Part shown: positions 4,516-8,835 of the stretch, piece after piece
Numbering within the stretch: the first letter of the stretch is position 1
How the letters are laid out: every line of letters begins with the position of its first letter
NCBI RefSeq assembly: GCF_003334255.1
Contig: NZ_QOWU01000058.1
Source of the DNA: Escherichia coli
GTDB taxonomy: Bacteria > Pseudomonadota > Gammaproteobacteria > Enterobacterales > Enterobacteriaceae
DNA: 32,432 nt
Strand: one strand, 5' to 3'
Notes under the pieces: generated by a model
The model's database searches: none
Told to the model about the DNA's origin: nothing
Seen by the model: the letters and a program-made list of their open reading frames with translations, nothing else
Made by a program: the position numbers and the translations under genes

Positions 4516-5388
4516 ATGAATCCGTCTGATGCCATTGAGGCAATTGAAAAACCGCTCTCCTCCCTGCCTTACTCACTTTCCCGTCACATCCTGGAACATC
4601 TGCGCAAACTCACCAGTCACGAACCCGTGATTGGCATTATGGGTAAAAGCGGGGCCGGTAAATCCTCACTCTGTAATGCACTGTTTCAGGGGGAGGTCAC
4701 CCCGGTCAGTGATGTTCACGCCGGCACCCGGGAAGTGCGGCGCTTCCGTCTGAGTGGCCACGGTCACAGCATGATTATCACTGACCTGCCCGGGGTGGGC
4801 GAGAGCCGGGACAGGGATGCAGAGTATGAAGCCCTGTACCGTGACATTCTGCCTGAACTTGACCTGGTACTGTGGCTGATTAAAGCCGATGACCGTGCCC
4901 TGTCTGTGGATGAGTATTTCTGGCGACACATCCTGCACCGGGGACATCAGCAGGTGCTGTTTGTGGTGACGCAGGCCGACAAAACGGAGCCCTGCCATGA
5001 ATGGGATATGGCCGGCATTCAGCCTTCTCCCGCACAGGCACAGAACATTCGTGAGAAAACAGATGCGGTATTCCGGCTGTTCCGGCCCGTACATCCGGTT
5101 GTGGCCGTATCGGCCCGCACCGGCTGGGAACTGGATACGCTGGTCAGTGCGCTCATGACAGCGCTTCCCGACCATGCCGCCAGTCCCCTGATGACCCGCC
5201 TGCAGGACGAGCTGCGCACGGAATCTGTCCGCGCTCAGGCCCGTGAACAGTTTACCGGTGCGGTGGACCGGATATTTGACACGGCGGAGAGCGTCTGTGT
5301 TGCCTCTGTTGCCCGTACGGTTCTGCGTGCCGTCCGTGACACGGTGGTCTCTGTTGCCCGCGCTGTATGGAACTGGATTTTCTTCTGA
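4516..5388 (+). CDS. yeeP: YeeP/YfjP/YkfA-family putative GTP-binding protein (50S ribosome-binding GTPase-like)
   Basis: Walker A GKSGAGKSS, DLPGVG (G3) and TQADK (G4-like) motifs. Sits immediately upstream of the Ag43 gene as in CP4-44. Start chosen at the internal ATG 4516; the GTG at 4453 is an alternative. Symbol is by synteny and family; yfjP and ykfA are paralogs. Confidence 0.8.
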   Translation: MNPSDAIEAIEKPLSSLPYSLSRHILEHLRKLTSHEPVIGIMGKSGAGKSSLCNALFQGEVTPVSDVHAGTREVRRFRLSGHGHSMIITDLPGVGESRDRDAEYEALYRDILPELDLVLWLIKADDRALSVDEYFWRHILHRGHQQVLFVVTQADKTEPCHEWDMAGIQPSPAQAQNIREKTDAVFRLFRPVHPVVAVSARTGWELDTLVSALMTALPDHAASPLMTRLQDELRTESVRAQAREQFTGAVDRIFDTAESVCVASVARTVLRAVRDTVVSVARAVWNWIFF

Positions 5389-5499
5389 ACAGTCTGCCAG
5401 GGAAATGCCTGATAACATTACGTTAATCAACTGAAAACATGACACAAACCCCTCATACTCCTCCTGTTTCTCTTGCGTGACCGCCTTGTCATTAATAGA

Positions 5500-5545
5500 A
5501 TAAAACGATCGATAAAACAGGTATCAATCGTTGCTATCGATCGTT
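5500..5545. promoter_or_regulatory. Ag43 upstream regulatory segment with Dam GATC sites (candidate OxyR/Dam phase-variation switch)
   Basis: GATC at 5507-5510 and 5539-5542 within aacGATCgataaaacaggtatcaatcgttgctatcGATCgtttat, ~220-250 bp upstream of the Ag43 start. The OxyR/Dam switch of agn43 is established knowledge; that this exact segment is the operator is inference. Confidence 0.45.
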
Positions 5546-5759
5546 TATAGTGGTTAATGGTCTGCGAAAAGGCAGCTGAATCTCTTCATCATGCAGAACG
5601 GAATTGCACACAACGGACTGATACTTCTCTGGCGGATGAGAGAGGGGAAGCATTTATGTCCGGGAAAAACCACTTTATCTGACCATGCTGTTTTGTACCT
5701 GCCGGTATCCACTTTTGTGGGTACCGGCTTTTTTATTCACCCTCTGTAAGGAAAAGCTG

Positions 5760-8606
5760 ATGAAACGACATCTGAACACCAGCTACAGGCTGGTATGGAA
5801 TCACATTACGGGCACCCTGGTGGTGGCTTCCGAACTGGCCCGCTCACGGGGAAAACGCGCCGGTGTGGCGGTTGTGCTGTCTCTTGCTGCTGTCACATCA
5901 GTCCCGGCACTGGCTGCTGACACGGTTGTACAGGCGGGAGAAACCGTGAACGGCGGAACACTGACAAATCATGACAACCAGATTGTTCTCGGTACGGCCA
6001 ACGGAATGACCATCAGTAGCGGTCTGGAGTATGGGCCGGATAACGAGGCCAATACCGGCGGGCAATGGATACAAAATGGCGGTATCGCCAACAACACTAC
6101 TGTCACCGGTGGTGGTCTTCAGAGAGTGAATGCCGGAGGAAGCGTTTCAGACACGGTTATCAGTGCCGGAGGCGGACAGAGCCTTCAGGGGCAGGCAGTG
6201 AATACCACTCTGAACGGCGGTGAGCAGTGGGTACATGAAGGCGGGATTGCAACAGGTACCGTCATTAATGAGAAGGGCTGGCAGGCCGTCAAATCCGGCG
6301 CAATGGCAACCGACACGGTTGTGAATACCGGCGCGGAAGGGGGACCGGATGCAGAAAATGGTGATACCGGGCAGTTTGTTCGCGGAAATGCCGTACGTAC
6401 CACCATCAATAAAAATGGTCGTCAGATTGTGGCTGTTGAAGGAACAGCAAATACCACTGTGGTTTATGCCGGCGGCGACCAGACGGTACACGGGCATGCG
6501 CTGGATACCACGTTGAATGGGGGGTACCAGTATGTGCACAACGGAGGCACAGCCTCTGACACGGTTGTAAACAGTGACGGCTGGCAGATTGTCAAGGAAG
6601 GTGGTCTGGCGGATTTCACCACCGTTAACCAGAAAGGCAAACTGCAGGTGAACGCCGGTGGTACAGCCACGAATGTCACCCTGAAGCAGGGCGGCGCACT
6701 GGTCACCAGTACGGCGGCAACCGTCACCGGCAGCAACCGTCTGGGCAATTTCACGGTGGAAAACGGTAATGCTGACGGTGTTGTTCTGGAGTCCGGCGGT
6801 CGCCTGGATGTACTGGAAGGCCATTCAGCGCAGAAAACACGGGTGGATGACGGCGGAACCCTGGCAGTGTCTGCCGGTGGTAAGGCAACAGATGTCACCA
6901 TGACATCCGGTAGTGCCCTGATTGCAGACAGTGGTGCCACTGTTGAGGGGACCAATGCCAGCGGTAAGTTCAGTATTGATGGCATATCCGGTCAGGCCAG
7001 CGGCCTGCTGCTGGAAAATGGCGGCAGCTTTACGGTTAATGCCGGGGGACAGGCCAGCAACACCACTGTCGGACATCGTGGAACACTGATGCTGGCTGCC
7101 GGGGGAAGTCTGAGTGGCAGAACACAGCTCAGTAAAGGCGCCAGCATGGTACTGAATGGTGATGTGGTCAGTACCGGCGATATTGTTAACGCAGGGGAGA
7201 TTTACTTTGACAATCAGACAACACCGGATGCCGTACTGAGCCGTGCTGTTGCAAAAGGCAACGCCCCGGTAACGTTCCATAAACTGACAACCAGTAACCT
7301 CACCGGTCAGGGTGGCACCATCAATATGCGTGTTCGCCTTGATGGCAGCAATGCCTCTGACCAGCTGGTGATTAATGGTGGTCAGGCAACCGGCAAAACC
7401 TGGCTTGCGTTTACAAATGTCGGAAACAGCAACCTCGGGGTGGCAACCACCGGACAGGGTATCCGGGTTGTGGATGCACAGAATGGCGCCACCACAGAAG
7501 AAGGTGCGTTTGCCCTGAGTCGCCCGCTTCAGGCCGGCGCCTTTAACTACACCCTGAACCGTGACAGCGATGAAGACTGGTACCTGCGCAGTGAAAATGC
7601 TTATCGTGCTGAAGTCCCCCTGTATGCCTCCATGCTGACACAGGCAATGGACTATGACCGGATTCTGGCAGGCTCCCGCAGCCATCAGACCGGTGTAAAC
7701 GGTGAAAATAACAGCGTCCGTCTCAGCATTCAGGGCGGTCATCTCGGTCACGATAACAACGGCGGTATTGCCCGTGGAGCCACGCCGGAAAGCAGCGGCA
7801 GCTATGGCTTCGTCCGTCTGGAGGGTGACCTGCTCAGAACAGAGGTTGCCGGTATGTCTGTGACCGCGGGGGTATATGGTGCTGCTGGCCATTCTTCCGT
7901 TGATGTTAAGGATGATGACGGTTCCCGCGCCGGCACGGTCCGGGATGATGCCGGCAGCCTGGGCGGATACCTGAATCTGACACACACGTCCTCCGGCCTG
8001 TGGGCTGACATTGTGGCCCAGGGAACCCGCCACAGCATGAAAGCGTCATCGGACAATAACGACTTCCGCGCCCGGGGCTGGGGCTGGCTGGGCTCACTGG
8101 AAACCGGTCTGCCCTTCAGTATCACTGACAACCTGATGCTGGAGCCACAACTGCAGTATACCTGGCAGGGACTTTCCCTGGATGACGGCCAGGATAACGC
8201 CGGTTATGTGAAGTTCGGGCATGGCAGTGCACAACATGTGCGTGCCGGTTTCCGTCTGGGCAGCCACAACGATATGACCTTTGGCGAAGGCACCTCATCC
8301 CGTGACACTCTGCGCGACAGTACAAAACACCGTGTGAGTGAACTGCCGGTGAACTGGTGGGTACAGCCTTCTGTTATCCGCACTTTCAGCTCCCGGGGTG
8401 ACATGAGCATGGGTACAGCCGCCGCCGGCAGTAACATGACGTTCTCACCGTCCCGGAATGGCACGTCACTGGACCTGCAGGCCGGACTGGAAGCCCGTGT
8501 CCGGGAAAATATCACCCTGGGCGTTCAGGCCGGTTATGCCCACAGCGTCAGCGGCAGCAGCGCTGAAGGTTATAACGGTCAGGCCACGCTGAATGTGACT
8601 TTTTGA
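5760..8606 (+). CDS. flu: Antigen 43 (Ag43) self-associating autotransporter adhesin
   Basis: 948-aa product. Extended signal peptide [52 protein letters not shown], repetitive beta-helical passenger (GG/NGG/TxVxxGG repeats) and a C-terminal beta-barrel ending in TLNVTF. AAGGAAAAG Shine-Dalgarno precedes the ATG at 5760. The antisense ORFs in the track across this gene are artifacts. Confidence 0.9.
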
Positions 8607-8628
8607 TAATCAGGTCACTCTCCTTCAG

Positions 8629-8657
8629 GCCCCGGTCATCATGACCGGGGCTTTTTA
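8629..8657 (+). terminator. Rho-independent terminator downstream of the Ag43 gene
   Basis: Perfect 9-bp dyad ccccggtca / tgaccgggg (8630-8638 and 8642-8650) followed by cttttt. Confidence 0.6.
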
Positions 8658-8676
8658 CTTTCAGGGAGCAACAGAT

Positions 8677-8835
8677 ATGCCGGGTTGTACATCACGTTTA
8701 TTGCCCGAAGGCCCTTTCTCACGCGAACAGGCTGTTGCCGTCAAAACAGCTTACCGCAATGTGTTTACTGAAGATGACCAGGGAACATATTCCCGGCTGG
8801 TTATCCGTAATGCTGAAGGTCAGTTGCGCTGGTGA
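8677..8835 (+). CDS. Small hypothetical protein (52 aa) conserved in CP4-type islands; family uncertain
   Basis: AGGGAG Shine-Dalgarno at 8663-8668 precedes the ATG at 8677. Product [52 protein letters not shown]. The 8641 start in the ORF track overlaps the terminator hairpin. Confidence 0.4.

Follow-up and report, generated by a model that had tools for sequence, protein, structure and literature searches.

The stretch of DNA analysed here (the window; 32,432 nucleotides of Escherichia coli contig NZ_QOWU01000058.1) carries agn43 (flu), the gene for the autotransporter adhesin Antigen 43 (Ag43). A six-frame listing contains a single long open reading frame (ORF) at the agn43 locus, on the + strand at 5685–8606. 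Translation from the conserved ATG at 5760, which is preceded by AAGGA and is also the start in the RefSeq annotation of S88 and ATCC 11775, covers 2847 nt and yields 948 residues plus a stop codon, with no internal stops. We are highly confident that positions 5760–8606 are an intact agn43 encoding the short canonical 948-residue Ag43, a type Va self-associating autotransporter. The coding sequence and the parts of its product are listed below, with subdomain boundaries following Ageorges et al. (Table S1 of PMC10058404).

5760–8606, + strand: agn43 (flu) coding sequence, 948-residue Ag43/Cah family autotransporter adhesin (ORF; NF033177; 100% identity to the S88 and ATCC 11775 genes)
5748–5752, + strand: Shine-Dalgarno sequence AAGGA, 7 nt 5' of the ATG (sequence reading; kept in all alleles aligned)
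5760–5915, + strand: extended signal peptide (ESPR), residues 1–52, predicted cleavage between ALA and ADT (Pfam ESPR PF13018, residues 6–51, E = 1.1e-12)
5916–6680, + strand: SL subdomain, type SL1a, residues 53–307 (assigned on the SL identities tabulated below)
6681–6935, + strand: EJ subdomain (elbow), type EJ2, residues 308–392 (83 of 85 residues as in EJ2 of a C6 representative)
6936–7205, + strand: BL subdomain, type BL2, the 90-residue foot of the L, residues 393–482 (87 of 90 residues as in a published BL2)
7206–7598, + strand: autochaperone region, residues 483–613 (Pfam AC_1 PF18883, residues 497–599, E = 2.2e-18)
7599–8603, + strand: translocator (pore helix and 12-stranded beta-barrel), residues 614–948 (Pfam Autotransporter PF03797, residues 674–924; AlphaFold2 (AF2) model)

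An initial annotation of this DNA described a 948-residue Ag43, and both the intact ORF and the NCBIfam Ag43 model bear this out. The equivalog model NF033177 (model length 948) scored 1990 bits against a cutoff of 1200 and aligned end to end, 1–948 to 1–948. The protein has the modular architecture of a type Va autotransporter, namely an ESPR, a beta-helical AIDA-repeat passenger, a type 1 autochaperone, and a 12-stranded barrel; Pfam also matches seven AIDA repeats at residues 100–455, and the passenger occupies residues 53–482 (430 residues). The 52-residue signal peptide boundary is the published one (Table S1, PMC10058404), and the construct in PDB entry 7KO9 begins at residue 53, consistent with a signal peptide of this length. 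The same entry is the best match among solved structures (residues 52–613, gap-free, 1130 bits), followed by 7KOH (949 bits), 4KH3, and 7KOB, and the autochaperone region falls inside its crystal construct (residues 53–613). 7KO9 is the passenger and autochaperone of UTI89 Ag43, and 7KOH is the counterpart from enterohaemorrhagic E. coli (EHEC) EDL933 (Table 1, Vo et al. 2022, PMC8993888).

A megablast search of 5,426 complete E. coli genomes found 3,957 in which 80% or more of the agn43 gene is matched, and a 100% identical 2847-nt gene is present in at least 10 complete genomes, S88 and ATCC 11775 included. The identical protein is WP_000820566.1, annotated as 'Ag43/Cah family autotransporter adhesin' in S88 (O45:K1:H7) and in the type strain ATCC 11775 (= DSM 30083). 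Within a collection of 5.8 billion proteins, the 90%-identity cluster of the 948-residue form holds 26,437 sequences. The window Ag43 is an ordinary, already known protein that shows every feature of the Ag43/Cah family testable on sequence. The initial annotation had implied a noteworthy short variant; forms of 948 or 949 residues are one of the two canonical Ag43 architectures, and what was found is a standard allele, with the exact protein in the E. coli type strain and with a near-twin in UTI89 for which structural and aggregation data exist. The length of 948 residues as such matters little, the architecture (subfamily SF-II, below) being common and the exact protein being that of the type strain; the UTI89 near-twin already has a structure, a mapped binding interface, and aggregation kinetics.

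Subdomain composition and allele class

Reference genes were taken from annotated genomes: UTI89, Cah of Sakai, flu of K-12 (NC_000913.3), Ag43a and Ag43b of CFT073, and the third copy of O157 644-PT8. Full-length identities to the window protein were as follows.

O157 644-PT8 copy: 98.4%, no indels
UTI89: 96.6%, no indels
Cah (Sakai): 89.1%, 949 residues
K-12 Flu: 81.6%, 1039 residues
Ag43a: 74.9%, 1040 residues
Ag43b: 74.0%, 1039 residues

Identity divided by subdomain was distributed unevenly among three of these references.

SL arm (53–307): UTI89 98%, K-12 88%, Cah 71%
EJ (308–392): UTI89 95%, K-12 73%, Cah 86%
BL (393–482): UTI89 97%, K-12 47%, Cah 96%
Autochaperone region: UTI89 97%, K-12 56%, Cah 96%
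Barrel: UTI89 96%, K-12 96%, Cah 98%

The shortfall from the 1039-residue K-12 Flu is 91 residues, in agreement with the roughly 90 reported initially. All indels relative to K-12 lie within query residues 403–528, and the large ones (41, 15, and 37 residues) follow residues 475, 487, and 506. The earlier placement of the difference in the passenger was essentially right, these positions being the end of BL and the start of the autochaperone region. BL1 is 143 residues long and BL2 is 90, the latter with a different autochaperone subtype (PMC10058404), and much of the length difference from K-12 is due to BL2. The 91-residue shortfall and the clustering of gaps at 403–528 would fit a recent internal deletion in a K-12-type 1039-residue allele that left the passenger truncated or damaged, but we give such an origin practically no weight. 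BL and the autochaperone region share 47% and 56% identity with K-12, as against 96% each with Cah. They are Cah-like and do not resemble K-12 with a missing piece, and therefore represent the alternative EJ2-BL2-autochaperone module, which is found across thousands of genomes. In crystals, the short form is a complete L-shaped helix whose foot has four rungs instead of seven (PMC8993888), and the NCBI family model is itself 948 positions long. A simple deletion of the K-12 allele was rejected, since the sequence around the gaps is that of the alternative module. The K-12 alpha/beta cleavage site (between AID and PTNVT) falls where length differences are large and identity is very low, and it has no evident counterpart in the window protein.

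Judged by its subdomain sequences, the window Ag43 is a mosaic of a K-12-like SL1a arm and a Cah-like EJ2-BL2-autochaperone module. This composition points to subfamily SF-II, in which the passenger has about 430 residues as against about 500 in the other canonical architecture (Ageorges 2019; PMC10058404). The initial annotation had proposed alignment to classes C1–C4; the alignment returned C4 under the scheme of 2019, and the corresponding class in the scheme of 2023, which extends beyond that range, is C6. The mosaic of SL1 with EJ2-BL2 was named C4 in Ageorges 2019, and Vo et al. assigned UTI89 there (PMC8993888). SL1 is split into a, b, and c in PMC10058404, where the combinations with EJ2-BL2 are C4 (SL1b), C5 (SL1c), and C6 (SL1a), and where C6 is the most prevalent class, with 36.5% of Ag43 sequences. 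Our comparison measured identity to the representatives in Table S1 of that paper and did not use a phylogenetic network. Of the 255 SL residues, 245–248 are identical in the C6 representatives and 249 in a C1 SL1a representative, compared with 218–223 in C4 (SL1b) and 214 in C5 (SL1c). The SL1a diagnostic block is present in the window SL and the SL1b/c block (...TASNTTISSGGLQFVGAGGKATDTIINEGGGQSLKGLALN) is not there. Class C1 (SL1a-EJ1-BL1; BL of 143 residues, passenger of about 500) does not fit, with BL 47% identical to K-12 and the protein 91 residues shorter.

The window gene might alternatively be the O157-type calcium-binding Ag43 homologue Cah (class C2, SL2a-EJ2-BL2). The lengths are nearly equal (948 and 949 residues), EJ, BL, autochaperone, and barrel are 86–98% identical to Sakai Cah, and the NCBI name 'Ag43/Cah family' is common to both. 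This identity is nevertheless highly improbable. The SL arm, which defines the class and bears the interface, is 71% identical to Cah (62–74% in the 101–300 bins) as against 98% to UTI89 and 88% to K-12, and is not of type SL2a; 7KOH from EDL933 scored 949 bits compared with 1130 for 7KO9; and a one-residue insertion that Cah has after residue 153 is not in the window protein. Cah was rejected on the SL subdomain. The initial annotation had named, as the outcome that would speak against anything unusual, a standard characterised allele, for example of O157/Cah type; the allele is a standard one, and the example does not apply to it.

Class labels are not uniform between papers. PMC8993888 puts UTI89 in C4, whereas its SL sequence falls among the C6 (SL1a) representatives of PMC10058404. 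The latter paper states that C6 has no characterised member; since the UTI89 sequence places with C6, this looks like a naming mismatch and not a gap. The present analysis exposes this mismatch in the literature over the class of UTI89 Ag43.

The Dam/OxyR switch region and leader

The region upstream of agn43 contains a putative promoter, the Dam/OxyR switch, and a leader RNA.

5473–5501, + strand: putative sigma-70 promoter of agn43, -35 TTGCGT (5473–5478), 17-nt spacer, -10 TAGAAT (5496–5501) (alignment to K-12)
5505–5545, no strand: Dam/OxyR switch region, with GATC-I at 5507–5510, AATC at 5526–5529, and GATC-III at 5539–5542
5505–5741, + strand: agn43 leader RNA (IsrC/Rfam IS102) (RF00124, 63.1 bits against a gathering threshold of 46, model positions 1–206)

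The promoter was assigned by homology to the K-12 agn43 promoter region. Its -10 element is identical in all seven alleles aligned; a generic sigma-70 consensus scan called no promoter here, and the -35 element matches at only 3 of 6 positions. Downstream, the leader contains a terminator-like hairpin at 5701–5728, GCCGGTATCCAC-TTTT-GTGGGTACCGGC, followed by the T-run TTTTTTATTC to 5738. The hairpin ends about 30 nt before the start codon and is kept in all alleles aligned, and isrC of K-12 is annotated at the equivalent place.

The 340 nt upstream of agn43 were aligned for seven alleles, the window and six references (UTI89, Cah of Sakai, K-12, Ag43a, Ag43b, and O157 644-PT8). All six references carry three GATC sites with spacings of 19 and 13 nt. 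The window has lost the middle site (GATC-II) by a G to A change at 5526 and retains GATC only at -253 and -221 from the ATG. S88 and ATCC 11775, which have the identical coding sequence, carry G at 5526, bringing the reference alleles with three GATC sites to eight, and position 5526 is the sole difference from these two genomes across the 76-nt switch region. The window locus therefore lacks one of the three GATC sites of a Dam/OxyR locus; the promoter, the spacing, GATC-I, and GATC-III are conserved.

The 5,426 complete E. coli genomes held no exact match to a 76-nt query with the AATC at its centre, the best match having one mismatch, and a second sequence context of the AATC, taken from a metagenome, likewise had no exact match in the complete genomes. 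A metagenome scan with an AATC-containing 26-mer returned three contigs from two assemblies. In these contigs the AATC stands upstream of different agn43 alleles: an EJ2 module follows in one contig and an EJ1 module in another, and the third has a 111-nt operator identical to that of the window. A sequencing error is unlikely, because the AATC recurs upstream of different alleles in these three contigs. The change at 5526 is real and rare, and it has either moved between alleles or arisen more than once.

Two contigs from one metagenome, OATL01000868.1 (7909–10057) and OATL01000404.1 (11338–13759), share an identical two-GATC operator and an Ag43 N-terminus identical to about residue 278. Their Ag43 proteins then diverge into an EJ2-type and an EJ1-type sequence, a clean natural example of the proposed shuffling of SL and EJ-BL modules.

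Expression of the window gene would be phase-variable through competition between Dam methylation and the OxyR repressor at the leader, where two GATC targets remain of the usual three. Methylation at two sites may be enough to keep OxyR off. Published summaries describe methylation of three GATC sites as excluding OxyR, and according to PMC2909390 it matters for the drop in affinity at agn43 and pap how many GATC sites there are. It is possible, although we hold it only tentatively, that the gene is intact and its phase switch altered, the loss of the middle GATC shifting the Dam/OxyR balance; this is compatible with an intact gene for a canonical Ag43. One fewer methyl group to oppose OxyR would bias the switch to OFF, and weakened OxyR binding would bias it to ON. 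Pointing to an altered switch are the two GATC sites in the window against three in eight other alleles, the isolation of 5526 as the only difference from S88 and ATCC 11775 in 76 nt, the recurrence of the change in three metagenome contigs, and the stated importance of GATC number (PMC2909390). To these can be added, with little weight, that in the K-12 register 5526 falls on an unspecified position of the OxyR consensus, so that loss of a methylation target with the OxyR contact kept is the simpler expectation. Against it, the OxyR consensus scan was ambiguous, with several registers matching at 13–14 of 20 positions, so the scan cannot predict the effect of the base change, and the variant may be neutral. 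Some OFF bias from one fewer methyl group is the simplest expectation, and a neutral outcome is at least as likely. That the two-GATC operator is a functional natural variant that measurably changes ON/OFF rates or the heritability of the states is likewise conceivable but on balance doubtful.

The loss of a Dam target through a single base at 5526 is the only part of this locus that could repay further work. If switching is indeed shifted, the window would offer a textbook epigenetic switch tuned by natural variation, and with it a natural test of the number of methylation targets required.

Translocator, RGD motif, and genomic surroundings

The C-terminal RGD reported initially, within SSRGDMSMG, was found in the translocator.

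8394–8402, + strand: RGD tripeptide, residues 879–881, where barrel strand 9 passes into extracellular loop 5 (sequence; AF2 model)

A search of the translocator sequence against PDB chains gave no match even at E = 10. Residues 612–948 were modelled with AF2 on an alignment of 22 translocators with identities down to 26%. The model (pLDDT 88, pTM 0.85) has one pore helix and 12 long strands, and its best Foldseek matches are EspP (3SLJ) and AIDA-I (4MEE), with TM scores of 0.70–0.80. In AF2 numbering, a strand at 252–268 is followed by a short hairpin at 271–284, in the loop that leads to strand 10, and three further strands complete the chain. With the C-terminus on the periplasmic side, a count of three strands back would place the RGD on the extracellular side. 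In other autotransporters, loop 5 is packed onto the base of the passenger. The sole low-confidence part of the model (pLDDT < 50) is window 8265–8345, residues 836–862 between strands 8 and 9. Nowhere else does the beta-domain vary as much between alleles, and strand parity would make the segment a long turn on the periplasmic side, an unusual feature in outer-membrane barrels.

Its predicted position at the extracellular end of strand 9 and the base of loop 5 could suit the RGD to act as an integrin-binding motif that gives this allele adhesion to host cells, a role we regard as very unlikely. An RGD is kept at the matching position in all seven other alleles compared (among them K-12, Ag43a, Ag43b, Cah, and UTI89) and so is not specific to this one. 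The motif belongs to a well-ordered segment of the translocator (pLDDT ~92) beside the loop 5 hairpin and not to a flexible exposed loop, the nearest non-Ag43 homologues show DGD or NGK there, and a motif of three residues is often expected by chance. The RGD of the K-12 passenger (VRGDAV, residue 208) is also lost, reading RGN in the window. The C-terminal RGD does not distinguish the window allele, and nothing suggests an integrin-binding role. The passenger segment at window 6375–6389 (residues 206–210) is a hotspot of difference between near-identical SL1a arms, reading FVRGDAV in K-12, FVRGNAV in the window, and TVYGDAV in UTI89.

Two further features flank the gene.

4516–5388, + strand: YeeP/YfjP-like GTPase gene, which normally lies to the left of agn43 in CP4-44-like islands (ORF)
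8627–8653, + strand: terminator-like hairpin and T-run after the agn43 stop (hairpin scan)

A GTPase family protein is annotated at the matching place in S88, ATCC 11775, UTI89, CFT073, and Sakai. The usual island module runs YeeP-agn43-DUF905-DUF932-antirestriction-RadC (JAB)-DUF987-YeeU, with YeeT listed between RadC and YeeU. The DUF905 gene, at window 8641–8835, is annotated as frameshifted in S88, ATCC 11775, and O157 644-PT8, and the window has the same sequence. The window is collinear with S88 and ATCC 11775 over more than 26 kb at 99.9% identity. Both genomes have a 2.6-kb ISEc12 (IS21 family) between DUF987 and YeeU, whereas the window junction (~11511–11516) is uninterrupted, and about 13 sites differ, about 12 of them, SNPs or indels besides 5526, in the first 11.5 kb. 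The missing ISEc12 and the differing sites indicate that the window comes from a strain related to but distinct from S88 and ATCC 11775. At window 24295, a 7-bp deletion (GAGCCGG) relative to ATCC 11775 within sgcR leaves two ORFs on the - strand, 23830–24435 and 24294–24614; sgcR in the window is probably a frameshifted pseudogene. A tRNA scan of the window found none, so the integration site of the island is not within it.

Self-association and comparison with known Ag43 proteins

The proposed mechanism is drawn from the Ag43 family and from the near-identical UTI89 protein, and from these we infer the secretion and aggregation of the window Ag43. The 52-residue extended signal peptide would direct Sec export across the inner membrane. 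The C-terminal 12-stranded barrel would then enter the outer membrane and export the passenger, which would fold into an L-shaped three-stranded beta-helix. Passengers of neighbouring cells would pair head-to-tail through hydrogen bonds along the long SL arm, made by Asn, Thr, and Asp residues on its F face, and the cells would clump.

The UTI89 interface is a single patch with 13 hydrogen bonds made by G13, G30, T32, N60, D79, T80, T98, N100, and N137 (numbered from A53), and glycine at seven interface residues abolishes aggregation (PMC8993888). All nine residues are identical in the window protein. Compared with cells carrying Cah or Ag43a, those with the UTI89 allele take longer to settle and their aggregates are smaller (PMC8993888). 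By analogy, the window allele should autoaggregate through a single, weaker interface and settle more slowly than Cah or Ag43a. Knowing the class thus helps to predict behaviour, here slower and looser aggregation than with Cah or Ag43a and possibly mixed aggregates with SL1-type partners.

Several points weigh against this reading of the window gene as a canonical, self-associating Ag43. Of the 562 passenger residues, 17 differ from the crystallised UTI89 protein, with S87 (T in UTI89) adjoining interface residues, so the predicted strength of aggregation is an extrapolation. We found no reported experiment on this exact allele in the literature, and PMC8993888 notes that no alpha/beta processing site is known for the short SF-II proteins. 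The class name is ambiguous between papers, UTI89 being C4 in one and C6 by sequence. One of the three GATC sites is lost, and normal phase variation is therefore not to be assumed.

Ag43 of UTI89 (UTI89_C1139; WP_000820443.1; 7KO9) is also 948 residues long and has all nine self-association residues in common with the window protein. The flanks match as well, with the GTPase gene upstream and the DUF932, antirestriction, and RadC genes downstream. The two proteins differ by 32 substitutions, 17 of them in residues 52–613, including S87T, Q358W/R361L, and a cluster at residues 206–210 (FVRGN in the window, TVYGD in UTI89). UTI89 has three GATC sites and the window two. The islands also differ, with UTI89 agn43 in a pathogenicity island with sfa/iro and window agn43 near fec/mtnK/yjhU.

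Cah of EHEC O157:H7 (EDL933 Z1211, Sakai ECs_1396; 7KOH; class C2) has the short EJ2-BL2-autochaperone module and the barrel in common with the window (86–98%), and its regulatory leader is of the same type; its SL arm is SL2a and 71% identical to the window SL. K-12 Flu (b2000; class C1) has the long EJ1-BL1-autochaperone module, with a BL of 143 residues against 90 in the window, an extra RGD at residue 208, three GATC sites, and a leader about 31 nt shorter than that of the window. It shares with the window an SL1a arm (88%), the signal peptide, the barrel (96%) and its RGD, the leader hairpin, and the layout of the switch.

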